The position numbers and the translations under genes are program-made. A stretch of DNA of 60,802 bases, counting the filler. It is 5 parts of 5 records of this genome, joined end to end, with 100 filler letters (N's around TTAATTAATTAA, not from the genome) between each part and the next. Parts side by side here need not be neighbours in the genome. Positions count along the whole stretch, not along the records: positions 1 to 30,956 come from SRR20825006_19; 4 more parts are not named here. One strand, written 5' to 3'. Below, in pieces: positions 14,592 to 52,490 of this stretch (the stretch's first letter is position 1; each line of letters opens with the position of its first letter). Below the pieces are notes generated by a model that searched no databases, had not been told where the DNA came from, and saw nothing but the letters and a program-made list of their open reading frames with translations.

Positions 14592-14974
14592 TAGAAATTC
14601 ATAGACATAAAAAAAGCCTCACTAGAAACTAGTGAGGCTTTGTGTGCTCCCCGGTAGTAGCGAACTTGCGAATTTTTTTCGAGATAGAATGGCCTCTTAC
14701 GGCATTAAACAAGGGTTGTCATGGAAATTCTCTTGAAATTGACTGGCTAAAATTCAAAGAAATCTACCCTTTTTTGGCTAATGTGAACTTTTGTAAACCG
14801 GCTAATTCTGTTAACCCAACGAAGCCAACTTCTCAAAAAAATACGCGGGAGAGGCAGGCTAAATTGTATCGTAAATTATTGGACTCTGGCAAGGTAAATA
14901 GTAGAGCTGAGCTTGCTCGGAAATTTGGGGTCAGCCGGGCTTGGGTTACTAAAGTTTTAGGTTCCAATACCTAA
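14592..14974 (+). repeat. Repeat module copy 1: terminator-like hairpin + GCTCCCC + HTH-encoding ORF (14642..14974)
   Basis: Perfect 13-bp stem AAAGCCTCACTAG-AAA-CTAGTGAGGCTTT (14613-14641); GCTCCCC at 14646; clearly homologous in DNA and protein to 25611-25980. Confidence 0.8.
14642..14974 (+). CDS. Small HTH protein or displaced gene C-terminus (mobile-element associated)
   Basis: 'QAKLYRKLLDSGKVNSRAELARKFGVSRAWVTKVL' HTH; weak GTG start; paralog at 25681. Confidence 0.55.
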   Translation: MCSPVVANLRIFFEIEWPLTALNKGCHGNSLEIDWLKFKEIYPFLANVNFCKPANSVNPTKPTSQKNTRERQAKLYRKLLDSGKVNSRAELARKFGVSRAWVTKVLGSNT

Positions 14975-16917
14975 CAACTTTCACAACATGTTTTGGGAAA
15001 CGGTTCTTCCGTCTTGTCTCCAGATTTATCAAAAAAAGAGCGAGTCGAACCGACTCTGGAAAATTTATTCTGAATACGAATAGCGTTTCCAATAGCAATA
15101 AGGGCAACCCCAACATCCGCAAATATAGCTTCCCACATTGTGGCTATCCCAAAAGTAGCAAGAGCCATCACCAACAGTTTAATTCCTAAAGCAAAACCGA
15201 TATTCTGCCAGACAATACGGTGTGTGAATTTTGATATATCTATAGCAAGGGGGAGCTTTGACGGCTGGTCGGTCTGAATTACAACATCCGCCGTTTCAAC
15301 CGTTGCATCTGAACCAATACCACCCATAGCAATGCCTACATCAGATAGTGTGATAACAGGGGCATCGTTTACGCCATCACCTATAAAACCAACAACATTT
15401 CCTCTCCCTAAAGCTTCATTAACATATCGATATTTTTCATCAGGCAACAAATTCCCATAAGCCTCATCCAATCCAAGCTTCTGAGCGATATAAGAGACCA
15501 CTTCCTGATTATCACCTGATAGCACCACCAACTTTTGAATTCCTCTTTCTTTTAGTCCTTTAATTGCTTCACTACTATCCTCTTTAATTTCATCGGCAAT
15601 TATAATAGTACCCGCATGTTCTCCATCAATGGCGATATGTACGTAGGTATAAGGTTTAGAATGGTCATTGTTGGTAATTTTTACCTGATGTTCTTTTAAA
15701 AGGTCGAGGTTTCCGACAAGGACGTTCTTCCCACCTATTATTCCTTTTAAACCCTTTCCTGAAATCTCCTGTTGGTTTTCGACCCGATATAATTCCTGAT
15801 CTTTTTTATAACCAAGAATGGCTTTTCCGATCGGATGAGAAGATTGTTGCTCCAAAGATGCGGCATAAGCAATCAATTCATTTTCACTGATGCCATTATA
15901 GGTCTGTACAGATTGCACTTCAAATGAGCCTTTAGTCAAAGTCCCTGTTTTATCCATAAAGAGAATATTCATCTTCCGGAGTTGATCCAGATAATCTGAT
16001 CCTTTAAATAAAATACCATTACCGGAAGCCGCGCCAATGCCTCCAAAATATCCCAGCGGAACAGAAATCACCAAGCCGCACGGACAAGAAACCACGAGAA
16101 AAATAAGAGCTCGGTAAAACCATTCCTGGAAAATATATGGGTCAACAATTAAGTACGGTAAAAAGGTTATCGCCACCGCCAACCAAACTACGATTGGAGT
16201 GTAAATTTTTGCGAATTTTGTAATAAATCGCTGGGTAGGAGCTTTGCGTTTTGATGCTTCCTGAACCATATTCAGGATATTTGCCAATTTAGTGTCTTTA
16301 TAACCGCTCTTAACCTTGATACGAACAGCTGTATCCTGATTAACAGACCCTGCCCACACTACTTCACCTTGATTAACGCTCATTGGCTTAGATTCGCCCG
16401 TGAGTGCTGCTGTATTAAAAGAGGCCTTTTGTGTGATTAATTCACCGTCAAGGGGGACCTTCTCGCCAGGTCTAACTAAAATAATTTCTCCAAGCTGTAT
16501 TTTTGATGGATGCAATTCCAAACTTTCTCCATCTCGTTCAACTGTGGCAACATCAGGCTGTTGATCAATAAGTTTTTTGATCGAACTACGTGCTTTATGA
16601 ACAGCTCCATGCTGTGCATATTCACCAATCGTGTAAAATAGCATAACAGCAACACCTTCGGCATATTCACCGATTGCGAAAGCGCCAAGGGTAGCAATTC
16701 CCATGAGAAAGAATTCACTAAAAAGTGTCCCGTTTTTAAGAGAGTTAAAAGCTTTAATCCATACGGAACCACCAACAGCTAAATAGGATAACCCATACAG
16801 CATCAGATACACATACTGGTTCCCTTCGAATATGATTACATTCTCAACAAGGAGAGCTCCAGTTAAAGCAATAGAGCTTATTACTGCTTCTTTATATTTT
16901 TCTAAGAAAGACATCAT
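14971..16917 (-). CDS. cadA: Heavy-metal P1B-type ATPase (ZntA/CadA-like)
   Basis: 'LTGES', 'SCPCGLVIS', 'DKTGTLT', 'SSHP', 'GDGVNDAP', 'FADVG'. Confidence 0.9.
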   Translation of the reverse strand: MMSFLEKYKEAVISSIALTGALLVENVIIFEGNQYVYLMLYGLSYLAVGGSVWIKAFNSLKNGTLFSEFFLMGIATLGAFAIGEYAEGVAVMLFYTIGEYAQHGAVHKARSSIKKLIDQQPDVATVERDGESLELHPSKIQLGEIILVRPGEKVPLDGELITQKASFNTAALTGESKPMSVNQGEVVWAGSVNQDTAVRIKVKSGYKDTKLANILNMVQEASKRKAPTQRFITKFAKIYTPIVVWLAVAITFLPYLIVDPYIFQEWFYRALIFLVVSCPCGLVISVPLGYFGGIGAASGNGILFKGSDYLDQLRKMNILFMDKTGTLTKGSFEVQSVQTYNGISENELIAYAASLEQQSSHPIGKAILGYKKDQELYRVENQQEISGKGLKGIIGGKNVLVGNLDLLKEHQVKITNNDHSKPYTYVHIAIDGEHAGTIIIADEIKEDSSEAIKGLKERGIQKLVVLSGDNQEVVSYIAQKLGLDEAYGNLLPDEKYRYVNEALGRGNVVGFIGDGVNDAPVITLSDVGIAMGGIGSDATVETADVVIQTDQPSKLPLAIDISKFTHRIVWQNIGFALGIKLLVMALATFGIATMWEAIFADVGVALIAIGNAIRIQNKFSRVGSTRSFFDKSGDKTEEPFPKTCCESC

Positions 16918-17288
16918 TCTGAGTATCTTTTATCTCTTAACCATAACCAGGCACCATCCGCGTTCTTGATATCAAAAAATCTTAATTCGTTATTGGTCAG
17001 TGAGTCCAGAAGATTAGTCCCCCACTTTTGCCACTTCGTCTCTCCGACAATGGCAATGCGATCAAATTCACCTATAAATTCGGCATCAAGCTTCAAATCT
17101 TCCCAAAAAGAAGCCTTATCATCCCATCCTCTGAATCTTTCTAAGACCATCAACAAATGAGGATGCTGGTTCAGCTTTATGAAATCCTTGAGAGCCGGAG
17201 CTAATTTATTGAAGTCTTTTTTGCTTAAGGTCTCTGATGCTTTTATGGCAATGATGCTTTCATCAGTATGTGTCTCAATAGTAATCAT
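16914..17288 (-). CDS. SpoIIAA-like (STAS/SEC14) protein
   Basis: 'FRGWD...FWEDLK....FDRIAIVGETKW...LRFF...AWLWL'. Confidence 0.8.
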   Translation of the reverse strand: MITIETHTDESIIAIKASETLSKKDFNKLAPALKDFIKLNQHPHLLMVLERFRGWDDKASFWEDLKLDAEFIGEFDRIAIVGETKWQKWGTNLLDSLTNNELRFFDIKNADGAWLWLRDKRYSE

Positions 17289-17382
17289 AACTACTCTTTT
17301 TATTTATTCAACTTTCAATAAATAGTAGGACTAATTTTATTGGATTAATTGCAGATTAATGTAAATCTCGTGCATTATTACG

Positions 17383-17949
17383 CTAAATCTGATCTATAGA
17401 AATTCTCTTATTTTCCTTCACCTCCTTGAAATGTGAGGGAGATAATCCGGTCTCCTTTTTAAACTGCCGGGAAAAATGTTGCTGACTGCTATATCCCAGT
17501 TCATAGGCAATTTCGGTCAGGTTCTGCTCTCCATACACAATTAACTCTTTAACTCGTTCAATTTTTTGTAAGATATAGTAACGCTCGATAGATTTACCCT
17601 CCACATTAGAAAACAATCGGCTTAGGTATTGGTACTCTTTATTCAATTTATCTGAAAGATAATCCGAAAGTTTTCCGTTAAGTTCTTTATTGAATCTGAC
17701 TAACTCTATGATCAATTGTTTAATCTGTTCCACCAATTTACTTCCCTGATCGTTAATTATCTCGAAGCCATTGGTGTTAACCACTTTTGTGAGCCGCTGA
17801 TATTCTGCATCAGTAATCGGATCAGCCAGTGTTAATTCTCCCAAATCTATCTTTTTAATAGTAAAGCCAGCGGTTAAAAGTTTGGTTTCTAAGTTTTCTG
17901 CACAACATGTGCAAACCATATTTTTGATATGAAAATGTTGTTGTTTCAT
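17383..17949 (-). CDS. AraC-family regulator with N-terminal metal-binding motif
   Basis: 'IKNMVCTCC' N-terminus; AraC HTH 'LTEIAYELGYSSQQHFSRQFKKETGLSPSHFK'. Confidence 0.88.
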   Translation of the reverse strand: MKQQHFHIKNMVCTCCAENLETKLLTAGFTIKKIDLGELTLADPITDAEYQRLTKVVNTNGFEIINDQGSKLVEQIKQLIIELVRFNKELNGKLSDYLSDKLNKEYQYLSRLFSNVEGKSIERYYILQKIERVKELIVYGEQNLTEIAYELGYSSQQHFSRQFKKETGLSPSHFKEVKENKRISIDQI

Positions 17950-18842
17950 GTTGAGTGATTGTCTTCGATTAATGATGATGTTTCCTTATCCAATTCAGCC
18001 TCAATGGTGCTATGGCTGAAATTGTAGGGCTTTAAAATTTCCCGGATTTCTTTTTTCGCATTTACGATTTCAGAATATTCTGAAACATCTTTTAAAATCA
18101 GATGGGCTGTAAAAACATGGCGCTCCCCATCAAGCGACCACAGGTGGAGATGCTTGGTTTCATCCACAAAATCTCTTTCTAAAAATTTCGTTTCTAACTC
18201 CTCTATGCTAATATCATCAGGGCTTCCTTGAAGAAATACGTATAGTGTTTCTCTCAATCTCTTGATAACGTTCCATAGCACATACGCTGTAATTAAAAGG
18301 GAGAGCACAGGATCTAAATAATGAATGTCTTTAAACATAAGAACTACAGATACAATGAGCACGGCGGCCCAACCCAATACGTCTTCCAATAAATGCCAAG
18401 ATATAACTTTCTCATTGAGCGTTTTACCGTGGCCCACCTTCCATGCAGCGTAGCCATTTACACTTACACCAATAAGGGCAAAAATAAGCATTCCCTGAGC
18501 ATCGGTATGCTCCGGACTGATGATACGGCCAACAGCCTCATTAATTACAAATATTGAACCCGTTATTAAAACAAGGCTATTAATTAGCGCTCCGAGGAGT
18601 GAAAACCGCGTATAACCGAAAGTGAACGAACGATTTGCTCCTTGCTTAGATTTGTGATCCAAATACCATGACAATCCAAGGGAGATACTATCACCAAGAT
18701 CGTGCAGTGCATCAGAAATAATAGCAACACTGTTTACATACAATCCACCAAAAAATTCGAGGATGGTGAATCCTATATTAAGGAAGAAGGCAATTTTTAT
18801 ATTGCCTTCCTGGCTGTGTTGATGATTATGAGAATGGCTCAT
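17946..18842 (-). CDS. czcD: Cation diffusion facilitator (CzcD/ZitB-like)
   Basis: His-rich N-terminus, 'SDALHDLGD', 'FTFGYTRF', 'WHLLEDVLG'. Confidence 0.9.
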   Translation of the reverse strand: MSHSHNHQHSQEGNIKIAFFLNIGFTILEFFGGLYVNSVAIISDALHDLGDSISLGLSWYLDHKSKQGANRSFTFGYTRFSLLGALINSLVLITGSIFVINEAVGRIISPEHTDAQGMLIFALIGVSVNGYAAWKVGHGKTLNEKVISWHLLEDVLGWAAVLIVSVVLMFKDIHYLDPVLSLLITAYVLWNVIKRLRETLYVFLQGSPDDISIEELETKFLERDFVDETKHLHLWSLDGERHVFTAHLILKDVSEYSEIVNAKKEIREILKPYNFSHSTIEAELDKETSSLIEDNHST

Positions 18843-18874
18843 AGGTTATTTTTCTAAAATTTTAAGTATTAAGA

Positions 18875-19219
18875 TTAGACTAAATGCAAAGGCTCTCCGG
18901 TTTTTACCCGATATGCTTCTTTTATATCCGTTACATAAATAATCCCATCAGCAGGGTTTGCTGTTTTGGCATGTTTGCAGATAAGAGCTAAAACGCTCCC
19001 AACTTCTTCGTTATGGCAAACAAGCTCTAATTTTACAATCGGGCTATCTGTAAAGTGAAAGTCCAAAGATGGAGAAGCATCAGGGTTTTTGTAGGCTCCT
19101 GTTCCTTCACCTTTAGATAATGTAACACTATCGAAGCCTTCTTCTTTTAGAGACTCTACTACTGTTTGTACTCGCTTAGGTTTTATAAATGCTTTTACTT
19201 CTTTCATAACGTTCCTCAT
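18875..19219 (-). CDS. P-II-family protein in the metal-efflux operon
   Basis: 'MKEVKAFIKP', 'KLELVC', 'DGIIYVTDI..AYRVKTGE' P-II signature. Confidence 0.82.
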   Translation of the reverse strand: MRNVMKEVKAFIKPKRVQTVVESLKEEGFDSVTLSKGEGTGAYKNPDASPSLDFHFTDSPIVKLELVCHNEEVGSVLALICKHAKTANPADGIIYVTDIKEAYRVKTGEPLHLV

Positions 19220-19234
19220 TTAATTAGCAATTTG

Positions 19235-20446
19235 TTAGTCATCATGTCCTGTTTCTCCTTTTTTCATTTCCGCAATCAGCGAGTAGGCATTGTTCCAGGC
19301 GATTCTTGTCCCTACAGGCAGAGGTTCGAGCAATTTCACCTCTATCCAACCATCCGTTTCAATGCCCGTTTTTATTTCAATAGAGGTAAACTCCCATTCT
19401 GTTTCGCCATTTTCTTGTTGTTCTTTGGCAGAGAACATATACGTTTTACCTTCGTCATCAATTATGGCACTCTCCGGTAATGCAAACACTTCCTTGTCTG
19501 TGGTGTAGATGTTACCGTTGATATACATTCCGGGGATTAAAAATCCTTCTTTCTGATCAATTTCTGCATGCACATGAACCGCTTTCGGGTTTTGCTCGAA
19601 CTGTTTCCCCACAGAATATATTTTTCCGGTTAGCCTGCCATCAGGAATAGATTGCACAGTAAATGAAACCTTCTGTCCTTTTTTTACCTGATACACATCT
19701 TTCTCGAAAACCATTAAATCGGCGTGTATGTGTTCGTTGTTAACAATCATAAACAGTTCTGTTTGCGGATCAACATATTGGCCAATTTGAATATTGACCC
19801 CTTCGATATAGCCGTCAATAGGGCTCACAATCGGGGTAGTTTCATAGATATCCCCATTTCTGATGTTTTCAACACCTAAATTCAACTGCTTTAGCTGCGC
19901 TTCGTATCCCTTAACTTCAGCATTCATGGATTTATACTCTGCTTCTGTTTGCTGGAGGGCCATACCCGAGCCTATCTCATTTTCATACAGCTTTTGTTGT
20001 CTTGCATACTCTTTCTCCAAAAACAACACCTGCTGGTAGGCGCGCACGTACTTAGTTTGTATGTTGGTTAAATTAGGATGAGATAAGTATCCCAATACTT
20101 GGTTCTTAGATACCTTGTCACCCTCAATAACCTCAATAGAAGTTATATTGGCACCTAAAATAGCAGTTACCGTAGCTTCATGTTGTGGAGGTACTTCCAG
20201 CTGTCCGTTCGCCCGTATAATGCCCGAAAGATTACGAGTTGGAAGGGTATCAACATTCATTTCAAGACTGTTAAACTTTAGTTGCGATAAATGGGCCGCA
20301 TTTGCTTCTTCATTTTCTTCGCCCTGCATTAATGTTGCATTTTCTGCATTCAGTGATTCTTGTTCTTCTACCTTAGAGGTGTTGCAAGCCGCAAAAAAAG
20401 AAAGCAGAAGAATTAGTACGGTTATATTTATTCGTTGGATATTCAT
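19235..20446 (-). CDS. czcB: RND efflux periplasmic adaptor (CzcB-like lipoprotein)
   Basis: Lipobox 'FAAC', 'IVSPIDGYI', 'LMVFEKD', 'LIPGMYI'; downstream of czcA. Confidence 0.88.
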   Translation of the reverse strand: MNIQRINITVLILLLSFFAACNTSKVEEQESLNAENATLMQGEENEEANAAHLSQLKFNSLEMNVDTLPTRNLSGIIRANGQLEVPPQHEATVTAILGANITSIEVIEGDKVSKNQVLGYLSHPNLTNIQTKYVRAYQQVLFLEKEYARQQKLYENEIGSGMALQQTEAEYKSMNAEVKGYEAQLKQLNLGVENIRNGDIYETTPIVSPIDGYIEGVNIQIGQYVDPQTELFMIVNNEHIHADLMVFEKDVYQVKKGQKVSFTVQSIPDGRLTGKIYSVGKQFEQNPKAVHVHAEIDQKEGFLIPGMYINGNIYTTDKEVFALPESAIIDDEGKTYMFSAKEQQENGETEWEFTSIEIKTGIETDGWIEVKLLEPLPVGTRIAWNNAYSLIAEMKKGETGHDD

Positions 20447-20469
20447 GATATTTGTTTTTAAAAAATTAA

Positions 20470-23400
20470 TTACTTGTTAGAGGTATTCATATAGTATTCC
20501 AATTGGTAACGGCTATTCAGATAATTACTGAAAGCATCCCATGAATCTACTTCTATACTGATGGCATCTCTGATATTTTGAAGAAACATCACGTAGTCAA
20601 TAGCTCCTTCTTTATATGCGGTGAGTGCACCTTTTCGCTGTTCTTCAGCCAATGGCAACGCCTCTTCTTTATAATATTCCCAGGAATTAAGCCACTTTAA
20701 GTAATTTTCCTGCATGCTGTTATAGACGCTGTTTAATTCCCTTTGTGCTTGATCAAGATTTTGCCGGGCAATATCTGTTTGGATTTTAGAGGATTGGGTT
20801 TTTCCAAGATTTGCCCAAAATAGCAATGGAAAACTAACACCTAACTCATATTTATAGAAACCGGATTGATTTGCGATTTCCTGAAATCCATAACTCGCTT
20901 TGAATTTTGGCAGAAACTGACTCTGATCTTTCTTAACCACAGCTTCAGCCACCTCAATTTTTTGCTCCATTATAGTCAAATATGGATGATTATTAAGAGA
21001 AGCTTTATCAAAATTGATTGGGTCATCTAATTCCTCTACTGAAACATTTTTTACCGTATAAAGAGAATCGCCTTCAAACCATTTATTAAGTTTTCGAACT
21101 GCACTTAGATAATCTCTGTAGGCTTGTTCTTTCTGAATCTTAATTTTATTAGCCTGATTGAGCGTTGAAAGATATTCCAGTTTGGATGATGCTTCTGTTT
21201 CCAGACGTAACTCTGCAGCTCTGGCTATATCTTTGAACTGAGCGTTTAGTTTTTCCAATACATCATATTTTTGTTTAGTACTGAAAACATCAGCCCAGTT
21301 TTGCTTTACCATCAATTCTACCTGAACGTAAGTGAGTTCGGCTCTCTGTTCTGCAAGGCGTTCGTTTTCTTTTTGAAGTTTCACACGTGAAGAAATCCCC
21401 AAGAGATTGAACCCTTGAGAAACTCCAAATGTAGTTCTGATTCCATCCGTACCATTACCCACTTCTTCTTTTCCCGTGAACACCTCAGTATCACCGATTT
21501 CCCAAGCGGTTTTCCTTAGTGCTTGTTGACTTTCTATTTCAAGCTGTGCTGCTTTAATAGCTGGGTAATTATCCATTGCTTTTTGGACTGCTTGCTCTAA
21601 TGAAATTCCTTGCAAACTATCTGTTTGAATAGACTGTGCGCTTATAACAGATGGAGCAATAAGATTTCCGGTACCTATTAGAAAAGCTAACATTAACGAA
21701 GCTTTTAGTCCTTTTTTACGAGCTTTTTTCTCTGATCTACGCTCTACGTAGGCATATAAAACAGGTAGTACAATTAGCGTGAGCAAAGTTGCGCTAATCA
21801 ATCCACCTATTACAACGGTAGCCAATGGGCGCTGTACTTCCGCCCCAGCTGAAGCCGAGAATGCCATCGGGGTGAATCCCATTATGGCAGCAATTGCTGT
21901 AAGCAGAATAGGACGTAATCGCTCTTTAGTTCCAATTAAAATTCGTTCTTTCAAATCAGTTACTCCTTCTTCTTTTAATGAATTGAATCGGCTTATGAGT
22001 ACGAGGCCATTGAGTACAGCTACTCCAAAAAGCACGATAAAACCCACGCCTGCAGAAATACTAAACGACATATCTCTGAGTGACAGAAAGAAAATCCCAC
22101 CGATTGCGGCCAATGGAATGGCTAGATAGATCATTACTGATTGAGAAAATGAATTCAGCGCAAAATAGAGAAGAATAAAAATCAGAAACAGTGCAATAGG
22201 CACAACAATTGATAATCTGCCTTTTGCACGTTGCAGATTTTCAAATTCTCCGCCATAGGTTATATAATATCCTACGGGAAGATCCAGTTCAGTATCCAGT
22301 TTTTGCTGAATATCCGTAACTACAGATTCCACATCACGACCGCGTGTATTTATACCAACAGACGTTCGTCGGAACGTGTTATCACGGGAAATTTGCATGG
22401 GTCCGGGTTGATAGCTGATATCTGCAATTTCCTCAATAGGCACCTGTGAACCACTTGGCAGATCAATATATAATGACCGTAAATCTTCAATACTTTGACG
22501 ATTGGCTTCATCAAAACGAACGACTAGATCAAACCGTCTTTCTCCCTCAAATACCACTCCGGCTACACCGCCAGCAAAAGCCGTACTTATATAATCATTG
22601 AGCTTAGAAATAGTAAGACCATATTGGGCTACTTTCTGGCGATTGTATCTAACAGTCATTTGTGGAAGACCCGTCGTTTTTTCGGGGTTTACATCACCAA
22701 CACCCGGTACAGTTTGAATAAGCGTAGACATTTCTTCTGCTTTCTGTGCAAGAATGTCGAGATCGTCACCATACAGTTTAACAGCTACATCTTCTCTGAC
22801 TCCTGTAATTAACTCATTGAATCGCAGTTCCACCGGCTGGCTGAATACCAAATTAACGCCTACAAGTTCTTGGTTCAGCTTCTCTTTAATTTTTGCAATT
22901 AGCTCATCTTTCGAGGATACGGTCGTCCATTTAGTTTTATCTTTTTCTAAAATGATTGCCATGTCCGCAATATCCATGGGCATGGGATCAGTAGGTATAT
23001 CTGCTACACCAATTCGCGATACTACGGTTTTAATCTCCGGAAAATTGTTTAATAGAATATCCTGAGTTTTCGAGGAAACATCGATGGCTTCACTTAATCC
23101 GCTTCCGGGTCTTATTAATGCTTGCATGGCAATATCTCCTTCATCAAGTTGTGGAATAAATTCACCACCCATTCGAGAAAAGGTAAATAATGATCCTAAA
23201 AACAGAATCACAGCTGCACTAATTACAATTAACTTTCTCTTTAATGCTAATTCTAAAAGAGGGTTGTAAACACGTTGAAGCCCTCCAATAAGCTTATTAC
23301 TGACTTTTTCAAGAGACTGTTCAAATCGTGCAAACCATCCATTTTTGTTGGCAGAAGGCTTCATTACTAATGCAGACACCATGGGTACGTAAGTAAGGCA

Positions 23401-24876
23401 AAGAATAATGGCTCCTATTACAGCATAACCAAAAGTAAAGGCCATGGGACGGAACATTTTTCCTTCTACACCTTCAAGAAAGAGAATAGGGGCAAATACA
23501 ATGAGTATAATTAGCTGGCCAAAAAAAGCAGAATTCATCATTGTGCTGCTGGCTTGATAAGCAATCTCATCCATTTGGTTTTTACCAAATTTACTTTTGC
23601 CTCCTTTAATTCTTTTTTCTATCTCATGTACGGTGCCTTCTACAATGATGACAGCCCCATCGACGATAATTCCGAAATCAATGGCTCCAAGACTCATCAA
23701 GTTTGCCCACACTCCGGTTGCTCTCATCAGAATAAATGCAAAAAGTAATGACAGGGGAATGAGTGATGCTGTAACTAACCCACCACGAAGACTTCCTAAA
23801 AGGATCACTAAAACAAAAACTACAATCAATGCACCTTCAATTAAATTTTTGGAAACCGTACTTGTTGTTCGTGCAATAAGATTACTTCTATCCAGAAAGG
23901 GTTCAATTTTCAGTCCTTCAGGCAAAGAAGTTTGCACACTTTCGATTCGTTCTTTTACATTTTGAATGACATCATTAGGGTTTGCTCCTTTAAGCATAAG
24001 GACCATTCCACCCACTGCTTCGTGTCCGTCTTGTGTGAAGGCACCGTATCGGGTTTGTGTACCAAATTGAACTTTTTCGGCTACGTCATTAATAAGAATA
24101 GGGATTCCGTCTTCGCTTTTTATTACAATACTGCCAATATCTTCTAAAGACCGGATAAGCCCCTCTCCGCGAATAAAATTCGCCATTTTATTTTTTTCGA
24201 TGTAAGCACCCCCGGTATTTACATTGTTCATAGCAAGGGCATCATAAACTTCAGAAATTGTTACTCCCATGGCGTTCAATTTGTCAGGATCAATCGCCAC
24301 TTCGTACTGTTTGATACTTCCCCCAAATGAATTTACTTCAACAACGCCTTCAACCAAGGTCATTTGGCGTTTAACGATCCAGTCCTGAATAGTTCTCAAT
24401 TCTGTTGGCGAATATTCATCTTCAAATCCTGGTTGTGGAACAATGGTATATTGATAGATTTCTCCTAATCCGGTTGTGATAGGTCCCATATTTGGTGAGC
24501 CGAATTTTTCAGGGATATCTTCTTTAACTTCATTGAGCTTTTCTTGCACTAATTGCCGTGGCAAATAAGTACCCATATCATCTTCAAATACAATAGTAAC
24601 AACTGAAAGCCCGAATCTTGAAACGGATCGGATTTCTGTTACGCCCGGAAGATTACCCATTGCAAGTTCTACCGGGTAAGTAACGAACTGCTCGATATCT
24701 TCGGTAGCTAAATTTTGTGAAACGGTGATTACCTGCACTTGATTATTGGTGATATCAGGTACGGAACCTAGATTTATGGTGAGCATTGAATAGGTGCCCA
24801 CTCCAATCAGAGTTAATATGAATAAGCCAATGATGAACTTATTCTTTATTGAGAACGAAATAATTTTGTTGATCAT
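20470..24876 (-). CDS. czcA: CusA/CzcA heavy-metal RND pump fused to a C-terminal TolC-like outer-membrane domain
   Basis: 'VPDITNNQVQV', 'SLGAIDFGIIVDGAVIIVE', 'RLRPILLTA', 'GAEVQRPLATVVIGG'; about 400-aa helical OEP-like extension after about aa 1070. Confidence 0.92.
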   Translation of the reverse strand: MINKIISFSIKNKFIIGLFILTLIGVGTYSMLTINLGSVPDITNNQVQVITVSQNLATEDIEQFVTYPVELAMGNLPGVTEIRSVSRFGLSVVTIVFEDDMGTYLPRQLVQEKLNEVKEDIPEKFGSPNMGPITTGLGEIYQYTIVPQPGFEDEYSPTELRTIQDWIVKRQMTLVEGVVEVNSFGGSIKQYEVAIDPDKLNAMGVTISEVYDALAMNNVNTGGAYIEKNKMANFIRGEGLIRSLEDIGSIVIKSEDGIPILINDVAEKVQFGTQTRYGAFTQDGHEAVGGMVLMLKGANPNDVIQNVKERIESVQTSLPEGLKIEPFLDRSNLIARTTSTVSKNLIEGALIVVFVLVILLGSLRGGLVTASLIPLSLLFAFILMRATGVWANLMSLGAIDFGIIVDGAVIIVEGTVHEIEKRIKGGKSKFGKNQMDEIAYQASSTMMNSAFFGQLIILIVFAPILFLEGVEGKMFRPMAFTFGYAVIGAIILCLTYVPMVSALVMKPSANKNGWFARFEQSLEKVSNKLIGGLQRVYNPLLELALKRKLIVISAAVILFLGSLFTFSRMGGEFIPQLDEGDIAMQALIRPGSGLSEAIDVSSKTQDILLNNFPEIKTVVSRIGVADIPTDPMPMDIADMAIILEKDKTKWTTVSSKDELIAKIKEKLNQELVGVNLVFSQPVELRFNELITGVREDVAVKLYGDDLDILAQKAEEMSTLIQTVPGVGDVNPEKTTGLPQMTVRYNRQKVAQYGLTISKLNDYISTAFAGGVAGVVFEGERRFDLVVRFDEANRQSIEDLRSLYIDLPSGSQVPIEEIADISYQPGPMQISRDNTFRRTSVGINTRGRDVESVVTDIQQKLDTELDLPVGYYITYGGEFENLQRAKGRLSIVVPIALFLIFILLYFALNSFSQSVMIYLAIPLAAIGGIFFLSLRDMSFSISAGVGFIVLFGVAVLNGLVLISRFNSLKEEGVTDLKERILIGTKERLRPILLTAIAAIMGFTPMAFSASAGAEVQRPLATVVIGGLISATLLTLIVLPVLYAYVERRSEKKARKKGLKASLMLAFLIGTGNLIAPSVISAQSIQTDSLQGISLEQAVQKAMDNYPAIKAAQLEIESQQALRKTAWEIGDTEVFTGKEEVGNGTDGIRTTFGVSQGFNLLGISSRVKLQKENERLAEQRAELTYVQVELMVKQNWADVFSTKQKYDVLEKLNAQFKDIARAAELRLETEASSKLEYLSTLNQANKIKIQKEQAYRDYLSAVRKLNKWFEGDSLYTVKNVSVEELDDPINFDKASLNNHPYLTIMEQKIEVAEAVVKKDQSQFLPKFKASYGFQEIANQSGFYKYELGVSFPLLFWANLGKTQSSKIQTDIARQNLDQAQRELNSVYNSMQENYLKWLNSWEYYKEEALPLAEEQRKGALTAYKEGAIDYVMFLQNIRDAISIEVDSWDAFSNYLNSRYQLEYYMNTSNK

Positions 24877-25013
24877 AATCGGATAGTACTTCTTTAGTAT
24901 AGACCATTAGCGCCTCATGGATTATCTCCACAAAGACATAGTGATCTTTAATTATTTATTGATAGATGCCATCAGAGTGATGCATCTATTTTTAGAGCAG
25001 TAGGTGAGGTGGG

Positions 25014-25475
25014 CTAATTCAGAAGTACTACTGTCTTAAGAGAGGTAATGGCTTGATAATCAATATCGGCAGGAATGAAAGTGTGCAGCTGCTTAAATGC
25101 TGATTTAGGAAGGAAACCCTCATTACTATTATTCACGAAGGCTAAAAATTCTACTACCGAACTCTGGTCAAACCGGCTTGTGCGGATATCTTTGATACAG
25201 TTTTCTGAAAGTTCAACATCACGGTGACTTTCAGGTACAAAGTGGTATTCAGCTCCTTCATGCTGATGCTGATCGTCGTCTGCATGTATTTTTTTCTCGT
25301 TTGCAAAGCCTAAAGAAAAATCAGACGTCGCTTCAATATTCATTGAGCCATCAGATTCATAACAGTAAACCAGAGATTCTGTTAATCCATGTACACTGAT
25401 AGCATGCCAACAAATAATCAGCAGTAAACCAGCCGAGATAGCTCTTAATATTTTATATGAGAAACTTGGAATCAC
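25014..25475 (-). CDS. His-containing hypothetical protein heading the czc operon
   Basis: N-terminal hydrophobic helix, 'HADDDQHQHE', C-terminal 'LKTVVLLN'; position upstream of czcA. Confidence 0.6.
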   Translation of the reverse strand: MIPSFSYKILRAISAGLLLIICWHAISVHGLTESLVYCYESDGSMNIEATSDFSLGFANEKKIHADDDQHQHEGAEYHFVPESHRDVELSENCIKDIRTSRFDQSSVVEFLAFVNNSNEGFLPKSAFKQLHTFIPADIDYQAITSLKTVVLLN

Positions 25476-25610
25476 AGAGTTGTTAAATTATGAAACCAAT
25501 GATAGAGGAAAACGAAGTATAAACCTTACACTTTCTTGTACAAAAGTTATCGTATTTTGTAGGACAGCATCTTTTTCAAGATTTGTTTCACAATAGTTAC
25601 ACAGAGCTGT

Positions 25611-25980
25611 ATAAAAAAAACCCTAACACATTGTCTTTAAATGTATTAGGGCTTTTAGCAAGCTCCCCAAAAGTTGCAGATTGCGAATTCTATTTACAAT
25701 TAAATGGCCTCTTAGAGCCATAAACGACGGTAGGAATGGAATTCAACTAGGAATTGACTGGGTTAAGTTCAGAGAAATCTACCCTTTTTTGGCTAATGCG
25801 AACTTTTGTAAACCAGCCAAGTCTGTTAACCAAAAGAAGAAGCTTTCCCCTGATGAACAGGCTAAATTGTACCGTAAATTACTAGCTTCAGGGAAGGTAA
25901 AAAACCGTGCTGAGTTGGCTCGAAAATTTGGGGTAAGTCGAGCTTGGGTTACTAAAGTATTAAAATCAAATGCTATGTGA
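25611..25980 (+). repeat. Repeat module copy 2: hairpin + GCTCCCC + HTH-encoding ORF (25681..25980)
   Basis: CCCTAACACATT...AATGTATTAGGG hairpin, GCTCCCC at 25662, shared blocks such as AGAAATCTACCCTTTTTTGGCTAATG and GCTTGGGTTACTAAAGT. Confidence 0.8.
25681..25980 (+). CDS. Small HTH protein or displaced gene C-terminus, paralog of 14642..14974
   Basis: 'QAKLYRKLLASGKVKNRAELARKFGVSRAWVTKVL'; weak TTG start. Confidence 0.55.
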   Translation: MRILFTIKWPLRAINDGRNGIQLGIDWVKFREIYPFLANANFCKPAKSVNQKKKLSPDEQAKLYRKLLASGKVKNRAELARKFGVSRAWVTKVLKSNAM

Positions 25981-26526
25981 ATCAATAATTTTGATAGCGG
26001 CTCTATCCCAAGCTTCTACAGAAGAGTTTGACCTCAGAAATAAATCACCCAAATAAATAAAGAGTGATTGATGTCTCCCTTCTACCTTATTCGTATTTAT
26101 TTTTTTACCGTATTCCCTTAGTATGTATAGCAGACCATTATATGCATGAGTCACATTATCTGGGTATCCATAAATTTTTAAAAAAGAATACTGGGTTGAT
26201 ACCTCATTGACTAATAAATGGAGCTCGTTTGGAGTAATATATTTTATTTCTGTCTCTACAAATTTTTCAATTAAATCCACAATTAGAAGACGGCCTTTAA
26301 CGGAGTCCCTAGCAATCTCTTTAATTAAGAATGCCGCCTGAAAAGACTCTTTATAGTCACTCGAAGCTAAAAATAATAGAGAACATTGGTAGAGAGCTTC
26401 TAGATGTAGTGATGGTTTTAATCCCACATTGTTAGTTAAAAAAATATCAAAATGTTCACGGAGGAAGTCCGAATCTTTACGACTTAAAACACTTGCTAAT
26501 ATTTGGTCGTTAACTAATTTTCTCAT
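25966..26526 (-). CDS. Hypothetical protein (likely start MRKLVNDQ at 26526; extends to TAA at 25960 if UGA=Trp)
   Basis: ATG 10 nt after the stop of the reconstructed XRE gene; the terminal TGA is followed by TTT TAA. Confidence 0.55.
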   Translation of the reverse strand: MRKLVNDQILASVLSRKDSDFLREHFDIFLTNNVGLKPSLHLEALYQCSLLFLASSDYKESFQAAFLIKEIARDSVKGRLLIVDLIEKFVETEIKYITPNELHLLVNEVSTQYSFLKIYGYPDNVTHAYNGLLYILREYGKKINTNKVEGRHQSLFIYLGDLFLRSNSSVEAWDRAAIKIIDSHSI

Positions 26527-26536
26527 TAAGACTGTA

Positions 26537-26992
26537 CTATTTACAAACCATCGCAATAGGATAAAAGAAATTTTCCAATAAAAGAAGCTCTTCGGATGTA
26601 AACTTGATGTTATCACTAAATAGTGATTTAATTTTAGCCTCATTAACCAAATAGGCCCCTTTATCTTCCTCGAACTTTCTTAGTCTCTCCTCATCGACTT
26701 GCAAAGCCACGAAATCAGGACAATACTCAATAATATCACTCGGAAGTAAATCAGAATCTAAAATTCACTTTGGTGCGATATAAAAATTTGAGCACAGTTT
26801 TGAAAGAAGGGAGTACTTCGGGTCATACTTTCTGCCTAGCAAGTATATCTCCGACATATAACTATTAGCAACGCCTATTTTTGAGGCAAAAGCGGACGGC
26901 CTATTCCCCGATAAATAATGGAGAAGTAGTAATTTTTTTTGTAAACAAAGAGATGATCAATGTATGTGGTTTAAATCTAATTTAACTGCCAT
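26537..26992 (-). CDS. XRE-like HTH repressor, 151 aa, with two in-frame TGA (missed by the ORF track)
   Basis: Manual translation: MAVKLDLNHIH*SSLCLQKKLLLLHYLSGNRPSAFASKIGVANSYMSEIYLLGRKYDPKYSLLSKLCSNFYIAPK*ILDSD...VCK-TAG; TGA at 26957-59 and 26765-67; the second matches the XRE 'xxWL/I' position. Confidence 0.7.
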
Positions 26993-27017
26993 ATTATCTG
27001 TTATTTATAGTTACTTA

Positions 27018-27103
27018 ATCTTATTCATTTATGAGGAATAAGTCAAAATTATTTTCGGAAAAATGAAATTAGACTTGACTAATTTCTCCGTATCGAATAG
27101 AAT
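27018..27103. promoter_or_regulatory. Back-to-back sigma70-like promoters with overlapping inverted repeats
   Basis: + strand TTGACT(27075-80)-N17-TAGAAT(27098-103); - strand TTGACT(27046-41)-N17-TAAGAT(27023-18); IRs GAAATTAG-N6-CTAATTTC (27065-86) and CTTATTC-N9-GAATAAG (27020-42). Confidence 0.65.
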
Positions 27104-27138
27104 ATAGATACAAACAATAATTAATTATATTATGCTTT

Positions 27139-29259
27139 ATGAAAACACTTAAACAACACAATCAATGAATCGTTTGGCGCTATGAAACGCGAAAAGGTAA
27201 ACCCACCAAAGTCCCTTATAATTTAAACACGGGCAAAACTGCAAGTGTTAGTGACCCAGCTACCTGATCTACATATTCTAAGGCGCAATCTTGCGGTGAA
27301 TCTGAAGTCTACTCAGGAATAGGTTTTGTATTTACAGACACTGACCCATTCCTCGGTATCGATATAGATGACTGTCGTGATATAGAAACAGGAGCTATAC
27401 TACCTGAAGCTCAGAAAATAGTAGATGATATAAACTCTTATACAGAGATATCTCCATCTGGTACCGGGGTGAAAATTTTTCTAAAAGCCTCCAAATCCCC
27501 AGATGTTAAATCCAAAATACATCTTGATCATGGAATGGCATTAGAAGTTTATGATAAAGGCCGGTACTTTACTGTAACCAGAGATCATTTAAAAGGCACT
27601 CCAAAAGATGTTTTAGATTGCAATAAAGCTTATCTAAGCTTAGAAAAGCAATATTTACTTAAAGCCTCTCCCAAAAAGAAAAATACCAAAACAGCTACCA
27701 TTAAAACCTATAATCCTAAACCCTACTCTTATGTAAGCGATGTTAATGTCATACAACTAATTCGTAAAAGTAGAGATAGCCAACTTTTTAACACTCTCTT
27801 TGATAAGGGCGATATATCAGCGTTTGATGATGATAACTCTAAAGCAGATTTTGCTTTGTGTAGTCTTCTAGCAAAACATTGTCATGGCGACCCCGAGCAG
27901 ATAGAGCGCATCTTTTCTAGCTCAGCATTAGCTCGAGAAAAATGGCTCCAAAGAGACGATTATAGAAAACGAACTATCGATGCAGCACTCATGGAGGTAG
28001 ATACCACTTATCAGACACATGTATTAGAGTCTCAACTCAAGGATATCTGAATTTTAAAAGATAGAATTGTCGAACTAGGAATAAAAGATGGTCATTTTAT
28101 AATGGAGCCACGCTCTAAAGATCGTGTATTTGCATTAACTGACGCAGTAAAAGCCAGAAATAAAGAACAGGTTCTTTTTTTTCTAAACAAACATAAGGTG
28201 TTAGAAGGTTTTAGGTATATCGCTTATCACGGAGATGCTACGGTTGTGGAAGATTATTACGAATATGATGTAAAAACAGGAATTCTTAACATTTATATAT
28301 CTGCAATACCAGAAGAAGTGGATGATAATAAACTGATTGAAGATTATTTAGATAACATGTTTGGCCCTTACAAATTTTTCATCAAGCAGTACTTAGCAGC
28401 CTTTGCATATAACAACTTTCAGCCTCGACTCCCTACCCTTGTTTTGTTTGGTCCGAGAGGAACTTCAAAAAGTACTTTTTCAAAATTAGTTGCCAATATT
28501 TTCCCATCACTTCAGAAACCTTGAGATGGGGTATCGAAGAACTTCACACCTGAAGCTCAATCTAAATTGGCGATTATAGAGGAGAACAGTACACTAAATA
28601 AAGACCAGTACAAATTACTTAAGCAATATAGCGGTACTTCAGAGTTACGTGTAAATATAAAGTTTATTCCCGAGTATAGCGTGAAAAACAACTTGAGTAT
28701 TATACTCATCAGTAACGAGGATATCCCATTATATGTGGAGAGCTCTGAGATGCCTACTGATGAGTGCAACAACCAGTTCTTTATGTATAAATGTACCACC
28801 GTTTCTAAAAGTATAGACGCTAAGTTTGACGATAAACTAAAGGCACGCCTGGGGCATTATGTAAGAACTGAGCTAAAAAATATATACGATACTACTGATT
28901 ATACACAAGGGCGATATGGCATGCCTGTTCCCATTACTCCAGAAGAAAAATTTATTTTCGGAGAAAACAGGACGCGGTTGGAAGAACTTTCGGAGGATTT
29001 CTTAGCTGAAATTGAGAACACACTTTCTACAAAAGACCCATCTCCAACTCTACATATCGATATGCTCCGGAGTAGCTTTGTATCAACCTACTTTGCAAAG
29101 GAAGTGCTAGGGCAGGATGCTCTATCTGTACTAAAACATTTAGCTAAAAAAGGAGTGTTGAGTGAAGCCACGAGAACTAGCTTCAACAACATAGTTTATA
29201 GAGGGCGTTTCTTTAAAAATATGCCTCAACAAATTAAACAAAAACTAACTATTGGCTAA
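27139..29259 (+). CDS. NrS-1-like primase-polymerase fused to an SF3-type helicase, 706 aa, with four in-frame TGA
   Basis: One continuous frame from ATG 27139 to TAA 29259 joins ORF-track pieces 27469, 28102 and 28567. Motifs 'NQ*IVWRY..KPTKVPY..G..AS..DPAT*ST', 'GIGFVF....FLGIDIDDC', 'SYTEISPSGTGV', 'EVYDKGRYFTVT', 'DDNSKADFALC', Walker A 'GPRGTSKST', Walker B 'AIIEE', 'ILISN'. TGA at 27166, 27265, 28048, 28522. Confidence 0.85.
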
Positions 29260-29263
29260 AATA

Positions 29264-29374
29264 TTGACGCTCTTGACACTGTTTATAGAGAAATACTCTA
29301 ATAGTATATTGGAGTTATTACCCTACTCTCCTAATAAATTCAAAAATAAGTGTCAAGAACGTCAGGATTGTCAA
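29264..29374. other. Candidate replication origin (inverted iterons around an AT-rich core)
   Basis: TGACGCTCTTGACACT (29265-80) and AGTGTCAAGAACGTCA (29349-64) are a 15/16 inverted match; TGAC/GTCA units at 9-nt spacing; directly after the primase-helicase. Confidence 0.5.
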
Positions 29375-29413
29375 TACAAAACTATTAATAATAATTAAAT
29401 AAGGATTAAAACA

Positions 29414-29947
29414 ATGAAAAATATAATAGTAAAATTTAAAGTAAATCAGTGCCCCTGAGTTAACAAAACTCAACAATACCAAGACCTCTCTTGCCCTCAT
29501 TATTATGGGGTATTTTGTAGGAAGTCACCACAATTGGTGACAGGCCTTGGCGAGCAAGTTTCACTATCACCATATTATAGCTGGTATCTAGTGCCTGACT
29601 GTGAGCATTTTCTCGATGAGAATGGCCAATATCTACAATCTCGTTTACCCCTATCCAGCGGTCGTGATCTCAAAAAATGTGTAAAGCTGATTAACGAGGC
29701 GCATTTTGGAGGTAAAGTGACCTTAGGTGAAATTCACGATAAAGTTAGAGCCCGTGGTAGTCATGTTGCTGCAAATGCTTTTATTGATGGCGTAGGAGAT
29801 ATTGTTCTTCTTAACAAAGTCCACCCTAACGCTTATAAGATAAGTACACTATCAAAATCTAATCTTACGGTTTATGGTGGAACAAGTTTTGGTTGGAGCC
29901 TTGTAAAAGATGCAGACAACTTTATGGCTGAATATTGGCATGTTTAG
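29414..29947 (+). CDS. Hypothetical protein, 177 aa, with one in-frame TGA
   Basis: AAGGA-N8-ATG at 29414 gives MKNIIVKFKVNQCP*VNKTQQYQ..., in frame with the TTG-started ORF at 29534; TGA at 29456; ends TAG. Confidence 0.6.
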
Positions 29948-29952
29948 CTCTT

Positions 29953-29988
29953 AAAATTAAAGCCCTCATATTTGGGGGCTTTAATTTT
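29953..29988. terminator. Bidirectional intrinsic terminator
   Basis: AAAATTAAAGCCC-N10-GGGCTTTAATTTT between convergent genes. Confidence 0.7.
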
Positions 29989-30104
29989 TCAATAATTGAG
30001 ATTACAAGAGTTACTCTTCATAAGAGTAAATTTCATTACCTCTATAATTAGGGATTACCATAAGAAATAAGAAACTTAGTGAACAACACTATATGTAGAA
30101 ATTT

Positions 30105-30818
30105 CTATTTTTTATGCTGTATTCTTTGAATCTTTCCAATGTGTCCTAGTCCAAAATAAAATGGAATGCTATATTCTTTATAATTAATAATTTCTCCATC
30201 AATTTTTGCGGTTAAAGATTCTCCATTAGAAAAAACTATTCTCCTCAGATAAATTGCTACAAACAATGAGTTATATTTATGTAACTCTGATAATACACTA
30301 AATTTTGGATCAAACTTTTTGATGTATATTGAATCTGGGAAGATTTCTTCTGTTAATTCTATATTTATATTTGAAATCTCTTCTTTATAAGGGTTAGCAA
30401 ATATAAATTCTAACTCTAAGGCATCAATATATTTCCCCGAGAGATTTTTAACACTTATCTGAAAGTCATTGTTATATACGGAGGTTGTTTTATTATCATA
30501 TACAATATGAACTTCAACTTCATTTTGAAGCTTACTAAAGGATATAAACTTGTCAACTTCTTCTATAAATAATGAATCTATTTGAGAAACTGAATATTTA
30601 CCCATTTCCAACCAATAGCTATTGGTAACTACATACTTTTTATATGCTTTAATTAGTGTGCTATCTATTTTGGTGTCTCTAAACACAATTGTAGTATCAT
30701 TGACTGAGCGAAACCTTAATAACTCCTGAATTGGTTTACTTTCTTGTTCACAGCTAATTAATAAAATTGTTGCGACCAAGAAATACGTACCTGCTCTTAC
30801 CATAAATAGTGTTTTCAT
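30105..30818 (-). CDS. Hypothetical lipoprotein
   Basis: Lipobox-like 'LLISC' after a hydrophobic stretch; 237-aa open frame. Confidence 0.6.
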   Translation of the reverse strand: MKTLFMVRAGTYFLVATILLISCEQESKPIQELLRFRSVNDTTIVFRDTKIDSTLIKAYKKYVVTNSYWLEMGKYSVSQIDSLFIEEVDKFISFSKLQNEVEVHIVYDNKTTSVYNNDFQISVKNLSGKYIDALELEFIFANPYKEEISNINIELTEEIFPDSIYIKKFDPKFSVLSELHKYNSLFVAIYLRRIVFSNGESLTAKIDGEIINYKEYSIPFYFGLGHIGKIQRIQHKK

Positions 30819-30956: not shown

Positions 30957-31056
30957 NNNNNNNNNNNNNNNNNNNNNNNNNNNNNNNNNNNNNNNNNNNN
31001 TTAATTAATTAANNNNNNNNNNNNNNNNNNNNNNNNNNNNNNNNNNNNNNNNNNNN
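30957..31056. other. Artificial contig spacer
   Basis: N-run, TTAATTAATTAA (stops in all frames), N-run; abrupt GC change. Confidence 0.98.
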
Positions 31057-38841: not shown

Positions 38842-38941
38842 NNNNNNNNNNNNNNNNNNNNNNNNNNNNNNNNNNNNNNNNNNNNTTAATTAATTAANNN
38901 NNNNNNNNNNNNNNNNNNNNNNNNNNNNNNNNNNNNNNNNN
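38842..38941. other. Artificial contig spacer
   Basis: N-run, TTAATTAATTAA, N-run. Confidence 0.98.
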
Positions 38942-46492: not shown

Positions 46493-46592
46493 NNNNNNNN
46501 NNNNNNNNNNNNNNNNNNNNNNNNNNNNNNNNNNNNTTAATTAATTAANNNNNNNNNNNNNNNNNNNNNNNNNNNNNNNNNNNNNNNNNNNN
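46493..46592. other. Artificial contig spacer
   Basis: N-run, TTAATTAATTAA, N-run. Confidence 0.98.
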
Positions 46593-52390: not shown

Positions 52391-52490
52391 NNNNNNNNNN
52401 NNNNNNNNNNNNNNNNNNNNNNNNNNNNNNNNNNTTAATTAATTAANNNNNNNNNNNNNNNNNNNNNNNNNNNNNNNNNNNNNNNNNNNN
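52391..52490. other. Artificial contig spacer
   Basis: N-run, TTAATTAATTAA, N-run. Confidence 0.98.

Follow-up and report, generated by a model that had tools for sequence, protein, structure and literature searches.

The stretch of DNA that we analyzed (60,802 bases, below called the window) carries on the first of its five contigs the left part of an integrative island. This island, which we call island B, runs from 25669 to at least 29989 and belongs to a tandem array of islands whose insertion site is a tRNA-Asn gene, at its 3' end. We are highly confident that the replication module of island B reads UGA as tryptophan in a host with the standard code, and that this recoding is real and selected. 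The module is made up of a divergent helix-turn-helix (HTH)-like regulator, a primase-polymerase (prim-pol)/helicase and a protein of 177 amino acids (aa), while UGA is a stop codon in the other genes of the island and in the host. The trait is inherited and under selection, and related islands occur across the order of the host, with seven gene families recoded. All results on the element come from contig 1 (1-30956), and its right end lies beyond the contig stop at 30956.

An earlier note on this DNA had proposed a real, integrated, recoded element and not a decaying one. This was borne out by an attachment-site (att) junction, by ratios of nonsynonymous to synonymous substitution rates (dN/dS) of 0.11-0.16, and by relatives whose in-frame stops are TGA only.

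The recoded genes

Three adjacent genes of island B (Table 1) are open under translation table 4, have no in-frame TAA or TAG, and end in TAA, TAG and TAG. The seven internal TGA codons, their positions and the TAA or TAG ends are just as the earlier note had listed them. Had all seven sites been TGG in the ancestor, the chance that seven of seven nonsense changes would be TGG to TGA is 7e-12 to 3e-7 for transition biases of 1 to 10. At all seven TGA sites the letters agree with those of public contigs, which come from one study and carry two organism labels; the source sample may be among these runs, and in single runs parts of the stretch are without contig cover.

The longest of the three genes codes for a 706-aa primase-helicase with a prim-pol domain, an NrS-1-type helix-bundle and a DUF5906 P-loop domain. 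Its Pfam matches lie above the cut-offs (PF22763, 57.9 bits against a cut-off of 27.9, E=9e-16; PF19263, 40.4 bits against 27.6, E=5e-10), which agrees with the NrS-1-like primase that had been predicted. A PHROG family of DNA primases matches residues 1-375 with an E-value of 2.5e-76, and this match spans the first two TGAs. The prim-pol residues D75, D77 and E103, which fall in invariant or nearly invariant columns, are all present. A 230-aa fragment of this primase already sits in a public protein collection.

In the 151-aa regulator-like gene both tryptophan codons are TGA and there is no TGG. Homologs in two related genomes (G109 and G211) have TGA at the same two codons and end in TAG. 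This protein possibly carries an HTH of the XRE/SinR type, as judged from profile comparisons: a homolog matches HTH_19 at E=0.0037 (17.6 bits, below the 30.2 cut-off), and the family profile has a weak match to SinR at E=0.085. These weak matches are what speaks for the XRE domain of the earlier note; for the window protein itself Pfam gave no match. The fold model was unusable (predicted local distance difference test, pLDDT, 48.8). Searches with the 177-aa protein gave no Pfam or PHROG family, nothing below E=0.28 by profile among PDB sequences and, for its fold model (pLDDT 73), no PDB or BFVD structure at E<=0.001.

UGA stands for tryptophan

To ask which amino acid stands at the TGA sites, we aligned the primase with 58 distant homologs, picked from the 120 listed of 2,211 matches. 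The column of codon 10 has tryptophan in 48/58 (phenylalanine in nine, a gap in one), and the column of codon 43 has tryptophan in all 58. Neither glycine nor cysteine occurs at these two columns in any of the 58 homologs, which supports the proposal of tryptophan over glycine. The enrichment for tryptophan can be read at these two codons; codons 304 and 462 are in variable regions and uninformative, the nearest C-terminal homolog having tryptophan at 462.

Relatives of the element provide a second line of evidence. We drew the relatives, and with them all inferences on the host, around a genome (G001) that has only island A, the neighbor of island B, in common with the window. In the family of G001, primase matches were found in 11/216 genomes from seven genera; all 11 carry in-frame stops, and these are TGA only. 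With TGA as a sense codon the primases come to 660-681 aa in 10 loci, and all 11 end in TAA or TAG. Within the tryptophan columns of the 11 primases there are 54 TGA and 77 TGG in total, and the two codons replace each other at single positions (TGA/TGG of 6/5 at column 20, 10/1 at column 53, 3/8 at column 286 and 1/10 at column 622). Column 286 is an invariant tryptophan in the 58 outgroups. Beyond TGG, the TGA columns of the clade are shared mainly with aromatic residues.

These primases are only 22-26% identical to that of the window, and they keep TGA at the same columns and have intact catalytic and P-loop columns. In the three pairs close enough for the measurement, dN/dS was 0.110, 0.116 and 0.157. 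The recoded relatives sit in long chromosomal contigs, including a closed genome of 3.85 Mb.

Recoding extends beyond the primase. Homologs of the 177-aa protein occur in 4/216 genomes with 3, 4, 1 and 1 TGAs, columns 61 and 165 having TGA in some of these proteins and TGG in others. G109 and G211 have a like gene order around an 826-aa protein with TGA:TGG of 7:1 or 6:3, so that TGA and TGG interchange in three families (primase, 177-aa and 826-aa). Two further loci have a recoded VapE-like helicase, a BT4734/PriCT-type primase and small genes. Altogether we examined 25 recoded genes of seven families from several genera (three from the window and 22 from relatives); all of them end in TAA or TAG, and none has an in-frame TAA, TAG or frameshift.

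The recoding is partial in each island. In the window, the end-module HTH gene and the gene at 25966-26643 are standard-coded with TGA stops. In the islands of the relatives, the genes that are not recoded have TGA/TGG counts of 0/40 (YqaJ-type nuclease), 1/59 (a protein of 742-789 aa) and 1/25 (integrase), RadC and an AAA ATPase are standard-coded, and DUF932 and AAA genes have a terminal TGA that is backed by TAA or TAG within a few codons. We also noticed a 174-aa frame 3' of the primases in three loci (L019:7655-8179, L022:7728-8252 and L023:7746-8270, minus strand) with six TGA and one TGG; its opposite strand has a TGA-free frame of 93-128 aa, and either of the two frames may be the true gene.

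Distribution

Across the order, a helicase-domain profile of the clade gave 17 matches in 16/283 genomes, and 16 of the 17 have TGA. In a sample of 401 genomes spread evenly over the phylum, all seven matches inside the family have TGA, whereas the 15 from elsewhere are all free of stops.

Outside these genomes, none of 39 relatives on viral contigs has a TGA inside the matched region. One IMG/VR contig (L170, 55% GC content) has seven TGAs in an open frame upstream of the matched domain (codons 39-237), which could be another recoded gene or merely a neighboring frame. Of 33 metagenome loci we examined 28, and the six nearest show the TGA pattern of the clade, including some whose contig names suggest ocean and sediment. 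Exact peptide patterns of the window primase found no close relative in genome, viral or metagenome contigs, and in phage records the only matches were to its N-terminal domain at <=35% identity. A primase profile scan of genome contigs, in which uninterrupted matches outrank interrupted ones, gave only distant standard-code homologs (haloarchaea, Planctomycetota and others).

Island B abuts a standard-code island

Immediately to the left of island B is an 11-kb heavy-metal efflux island (island A, Table 1), in which every tryptophan codon is TGG and TGA is used as a stop. Its borders are copies of the tRNA-Asn 3' end, with core copies at 14646 and 25658-25668, and it has no integrase. Island A is 99.96% identical over 11,024 bases to the copy in G001, a 99%-complete standard-code genome that matches the window only at 14646-25668. 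In G001 the right end of island A abuts an intact tRNA-Asn(GTT); by ARAGORN there is no tRNA gene in the window itself. The alignment of the two diverges exactly past 25668, where G001 continues with the tRNA body and the window with the TGA-bearing block.

The earlier note had given the element bounds of 25960-29947. These located the TGA genes, but the left edge is further left, at 25669, and the right end is off the contig. The first 300 bases of island B are about 80% identical to the first 300 of island A, and both code for an HTH protein of 99-110 aa. A similar island end, with the hairpin, the tRNA-end copy (GCTCCCC(GG)), a conserved motif and the HTH gene, is present at four further loci (L018, L019, L021 and L022). 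From the shared att end and end module we conclude that two islands belonging to one family lie in tandem in the window, at a tRNA-Asn site. A public contig covering 25388-26015 bridges the A/B junction and the 25.9-26.0 kb region, where a check for a chimera had been proposed, with no differences. To either side of the junction the GC content is about 36%.

Some further observations concern these borders. The copy of island A in G001 is at C11:48418-59452, in a genome that otherwise shares nothing with the window, and the near identity points to a very recent move between the window organism and G001. A further ~17.6 kb separates island A in G001 from a copy of the left junction of the window. 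A repeat similar to TTTCAC...GTTTCAC at 25596-25613, inside the right end of the preceding island, adjoins the hairpin and att core and recurs at the matching place in L018, L019 and G001; it may serve a recombinase as an arm site or belong to a promoter.

Code of the host

In the 15 large open reading frames of the island's flank (0.3-25.5 kb), TGG occurs 94 times and TGA never in frame; TGA is the stop of four frames, in two cases as part of an ATGA overlap. This is the code 11 that had been assigned to the flank. Sorting domains for type IX secretion (T9SS) in the large proteins of contig 1 place it among Bacteroidota-like bacteria, and the host, standard-coded and T9SS-bearing, is probably a member of Balneolaceae. 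A Balneola sp. protein from a metagenome-assembled genome, in the 90% cluster of the island integrase of G098, is a hint for this family and nothing more.

Genomes of the family do not have code 4 as a whole: they keep release factor 2 (RF2), we found no tRNA(UCA), and host genes use TGG and some end in TGA. RF2 was above the curated cut-off in 5/5 family genomes. The closed genome G098, which carries an 8.4-kb island amid housekeeping genes, has 37 tRNAs, one of them a tRNA-Trp(CCA) and none with a UCA anticodon. Applied to relatives, the proposed check of prfB and of tRNA-Trp(UCA) found the release factor and not the tRNA, in a tRNA survey complete in G098 and partial elsewhere.

TGA position and a possible translational gate

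The TGAs are not spread evenly over the genes. Among the tryptophan codons of the 25 recoded genes, TGA makes up 39/52 in codons 1-60 against 50/132 later (odds ratio 4.9; Fisher p 7e-6, which is overstated because the test treats related genes as independent). The first tryptophan codon is TGA in 21 of the 25 genes, and the first TGA is within 25 codons in 23 of them. The overall share of TGA is 89/184 tryptophan codons, and the third-position A/(A+G) of 0.28/0.46 predicts about 0.6. A share this near to composition suggests that UGA is read about as well as UGG when the genes matter.

There are also hints of transcription. Two further studies each provide a cDNA-type contig that begins close behind a promoter-like site (Table 1), at 27107 and 27110, after loose letters that we take to be the end of a template-switching cDNA adaptor. 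One of them ends in an A run at an A-rich site. Both keep the TGAs at 27166 and 27265. If these runs are RNA, which is only a guess, the primase message is made in ordinary samples with UGA at codons 10 and 43, and this would fit translational control and argue against editing.

We lean towards a reading in which the early UGAs block translation. The mRNA would be made, and ribosomes would halt within the first ~25 codons unless UGA is read as tryptophan. The key would be efficient UGA-to-Trp decoding, by an opal suppressor tRNA and/or the loss of RF2 action, switched on from outside; otherwise the early UGAs would keep the genes shut. We hold the recoding and such a gate jointly with moderate confidence. 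A more tentative step, possible but somewhat doubtful, is that the key is supplied in trans by another mobile agent, e.g. a recoded phage or a conjugative element, which would couple replication of the island to the presence of that agent. We consider this the most likely source because neither the examined host genomes nor the islands encode the key. With the same hesitation we suggest that an island lineage in one order may keep its replication genes in a second code (UGA as tryptophan) as a lock. In these marine or saline bacteria it would open only to an opal-suppressing agent from outside, a phage or a conjugative element.

Several observations weigh against this account, along with the overstated p-value and the guessed nature of the RNA runs. 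No decoder or helper, which the central step would need, was found in the islands or host genomes examined. No suppressor tRNA, release factor or aminoacyl-tRNA synthetase was found in the window element (its left part) or in the island loci. With ARAGORN the island loci have only tRNA-Arg, tRNA-Leu and tRNA-Asn, and no UGA-reading tRNA is in the islands or their 10-kb surroundings. At the gathering score Rfam found only tRNA-Arg in three island loci, and in the window element only a chance-level Phe-leader (E=0.07). Pattern scans for a tRNA(UCA), which miss tRNAs with an unusual T-loop or anticodon loop, were negative: no such tRNA was among 50 of 109 hits checked with ARAGORN in five carrier genomes (anticodon loop plus T-loop pattern), nor among 50 of 193 hits of a tighter pattern in 216 genomes. 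Three identical hits of the tighter pattern are the variable arm of tRNA-Ser(GCT). A control pattern recovered tRNA-Trp(CCA) in 5/5 genomes. The tRNA survey of the hosts, as noted above, is complete for G098 only.

The kind of helper is also in doubt, as Pfam and PHROG searches gave no integrase, packaging or capsid-redirecting gene in the 5.3 kb of island B within the contig; in the complete 8.4-kb island of G098 we saw no packaging or capsid-redirecting gene. Readthrough of UGA as tryptophan is deduced from sequence. Finally, the trait is not universal or not always kept. One order member from another family (G241, C22:13604-14596) has a close helicase homolog with no TGA, and another order member (G140, C72:1061-2059) has a helicase domain with three TGAs and a TAA. 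The former may be a standard-code sister usable for dating the change, and the latter may be a decayed copy.

Alternative explanations

A rival to the gate, which we consider unlikely, is attenuation without any helper. Here the host tRNA-Trp(CCA) would read UGA at a low rate, and the UGAs would lower expression of the replication proteins by orders of magnitude. Near-cognate insertion of tryptophan at UGA is known in bacteria, the hosts have tRNA-Trp(CCA) and no cognate decoder was found, primase RNA is seemingly made in ordinary samples, and early UGAs would also suit a cheap attenuator. However, the genes have 3-10 UGAs each (10 in L015; 7/8 of the tryptophan codons in an 826-aa protein), and if only a few percent of ribosomes passed each of them, hardly any full-length product would result. 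A TGA share near the compositional expectation resembles near-neutral synonymous use and not a costly brake. Nor is the context of the codons a leaky one, with no shared motif around 75 in-frame TGAs and C as the next base in only 5% of them, and the tRNA-Trp of G098 has an ordinary anticodon stem of five pairs.

Foreign code-4 DNA, either misassembled onto a standard-code contig or a very recent arrival, is very improbable in our judgment. The bin has two very different GC levels, the block is at a contig end, and the exact peptide patterns of the primase found no close relative in phage, viral, genome or metagenome collections. Against this, GC does not change at the junction, a public contig bridges it, and it follows att logic, with the first 300 bases about 80% identical to the start of an island that itself resides in a 99%-complete standard-code genome. 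The recoded relatives lie inside long chromosomal contigs, and standard-code genes with TGA stops are found inside the same islands. Import from a code-4 host, which the earlier note had offered as one origin, is disfavored for the related reason that the att junction and the end module of ~300 bp are shared with the adjacent standard-code island, with the same end in four other family genomes.

Just as improbable is that UGA is read as something else (glycine by table 25, selenocysteine or cysteine) or that the RNA is edited from UGA to UGG. Bacteria with table 25 exist, and editing would account for the missing decoder. But the TGA columns are tryptophan in standard-code homologs (58/58 at codon 43) and never glycine or cysteine, TGA swaps with TGG within the clade and otherwise falls mainly in aromatic columns, and Rfam found no selenocysteine insertion (SECIS)-like or other RNA. 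As to editing, positions 27168 and 27267 are still A in both cDNA-type contigs, although contigs can hide an edited minority.

The notion of decaying pseudogenes in a dead element, with TGG mutated to TGA, starts from the facts that the genes are untranslatable as they stand in a standard-code host, that TGG to TGA is a single transition and that the relative G140 also has a TAA, and it is for practical purposes refuted by the seven-of-seven pattern in the window alone (p <=3e-7), the absence of TAA, TAG and frameshifts from 25 genes of seven families, the dN/dS of 0.11-0.16, and TGA columns kept at 22-26% identity with intact catalytic and P-loop columns.

Relation to known recoded and mobile elements

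The nearest described cases are the TAG-recoded prophages Garnet and Topaz, which reside in standard-code hosts and have integrases free of the codon; its authors propose recoding as a translational switch between arms of the life cycle (bioRxiv 10.1101/2021.08.26.457843). Like these prophages, island B is part of a mobile element at a tRNA gene of a standard-code bacterium that uses one stop as a sense codon in some genes and keeps integration-type genes clear of it. Garnet and Topaz, in the same account, are 24-kb phages with structural genes in which nearly all genes are recoded and TAG is glutamine. In contrast, island B is small, has no virion genes in view, uses TGA as tryptophan and recodes only a replication and regulator module, and no suppressor tRNA, release factor or synthetase was found on the islands.

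TGA as tryptophan in part of a genome, beside standard blocks and in a standard-code host, is a feature that the islands have in common with the Agate and crAss-like phages. In the TGA-recoded lytic Agate phages it is the structural and lysis genes, not the DNA replication genes, that have collected the TGAs (bioRxiv 10.1101/2021.08.26.457843), and crAss-like phages have code blocks (bioRxiv 10.1101/2022.06.29.495998). The islands show the reverse of the Agate pattern and recode replication genes. Such phages often carry their own suppressor tRNA, and none was found on the islands. No virion, packaging or lysis genes were seen in the window element and the islands examined, where recoding affects primase, helicase and regulator genes and small genes without an assigned function.

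Satellites such as the phage-inducible chromosomal islands (PICI) and P4 are small islands with a tRNA-type att site, a divergent regulator and primase-helicase core, and dependence on a second agent. Island B has the att junction at a tRNA site and the regulator-primase core, and its contig ends before the right end of the island; dependence on a second agent is only suspected here. Unlike in these satellites, integrase, packaging and capsid-redirecting genes were not seen in its 5.3 kb. In the literature we found no description of a code change as a control mechanism in satellites.

Tandem accretion of integrative elements at one tRNA gene, including integrase-less units mobilizable in cis, is an established concept. 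The window conforms to it in having successive islands each bounded by a tRNA 3'-end copy, with island A lacking an integrase. That concept is silent on coding, and the recoding is the new element. We found no report of UGA-recoded integrative islands or satellites in the literature, tables of recoded elements in supplements aside.

Recoding has so far been described for phages, mostly from the gut, mostly in late genes and usually with their own suppressor tRNA. The setting here is new: small chromosomal islands of free-living bacteria, with recoded replication and regulator genes and no decoder carried. Standard annotation pipelines call such genes fragments or pseudogenes. For the biology of mobile elements it would mean that the genetic code can act as a replication lock, and something in these cells must read UGA as tryptophan, be it new recoded phages or a conditional readthrough state of the host. 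If an outside agent does open such a lock, the islands would sense and exploit a change of code in the host cell. Replication gated by the genetic code would then be known for the first time from a mobile element that is not viral, and hidden code-4 agents would have to exist beyond the gut.

Other features of the window

Table 1. Features of the window, with positions along the whole stretch.
Feature	Position	Strand	Details
Window	60,802 bases		five contigs; N-spacers at 30957-31056, 38842-38941, 46493-46592, 52391-52490
Island A	14646..25668		11-kb heavy-metal efflux island, not recoded; Pfam: P-type ATPase, CDF, HlyD-type adaptor, 1468-aa RND pump
Island A/B junction	25614..25668	-	hairpin and 11-base copy of tRNA-Asn 3' end (25658-25668), the att core
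End-module HTH protein, 99 aa	25681..25980	+	standard-coded; 3 TGG; TGA stop
Unassigned gene, 225 aa (186 aa from ATG 26526, Met40)	25966..26643	-	standard-coded; TGA stop, TAA two codons on
Regulator-like protein, 151 aa	26537..26992	-	TGA at codons 12 (26957-26959) and 76 (26765-26767); TAG stop
Promoter-like site and primase RNA 5' end	27075..27110	+	TTGACT, 17 bases, TAGAAT; ends at 27103
Primase-helicase, 706 aa	27139..29259	+	TGA at codons 10, 43, 304, 462 (27166, 27265, 28048, 28522); 2 TGG; TAA stop
177-aa protein	29414..29947	+	TGA at codon 15 (29456); 3 TGG; TAG stop
Hairpin and T run	29959..29989	+	read directly from sequence; loop too long for automated scan; probable terminator
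237-aa protein, signal-peptide-like N-terminus	30105..30818	-	DNA 28% GC; no family matched

The 99-aa end-module protein has 70% identity with the corresponding protein from the left end of island A (14666-14971), and 49-59% with those encoded at the same end in L018, L019, L021 and L022. Its PHROG matches are weak (ParB-like, 2e-4; recombinase, 6e-4), and it may be a DNA binder of the excision or partition type.

No Pfam or PHROG family matched the gene at 25966-26643. On the minus strand a cDNA-type contig begins (5' end) at 26552, still within the 3' end of the regulator-like gene, and this suggests that the gene at 25966-26643 starts at ATG 26526 with its own promoter. Which start is used bears on the tally in the earlier note of six TGG across four genes: it holds with the start at Met40 (0+2+3+1) and fails with the long form, in which this gene has three TGG instead of one. 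The terminal TGA of this fourth gene (25966) and the TAA that follows are as the note had described them.

The promoter-like site upstream of the primase has the top score in the region (10/12 positions), and the number of such sites in the region is not above chance. The hairpin with the T run is probably the terminator of the primase operon, to judge from its form and place. Contigs from two runs (X1 and X2) match only 35 AT-rich bases at 29387-29421, diverge on both sides and have higher depth; this is probably a short repeat common to other DNA of those samples. With the contig ending at 30956, the gene at 30105-30818 may lie inside or outside island B.

The N-spacers between the five contigs enclose a 12-base linker with stops in all frames. 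Contigs 1 and 3 have a GC content of about 36%, and contigs 2, 4 and 5 of 53-64%; by these values the bin is probably a mixture of at least two organisms.

Further to the left on contig 1 is a defense operon similar to the cyclic oligonucleotide-based antiphage signaling system (CBASS), at 4597-9010 on the minus strand, with a DncV-like cyclic nucleotide synthase (7958-9010), an E1/E2-type ThiF/Prok-E2 protein (6219-7958) and two more genes. A homolog of one of its genes (4597-5745) lies beside the recoded island in L019.

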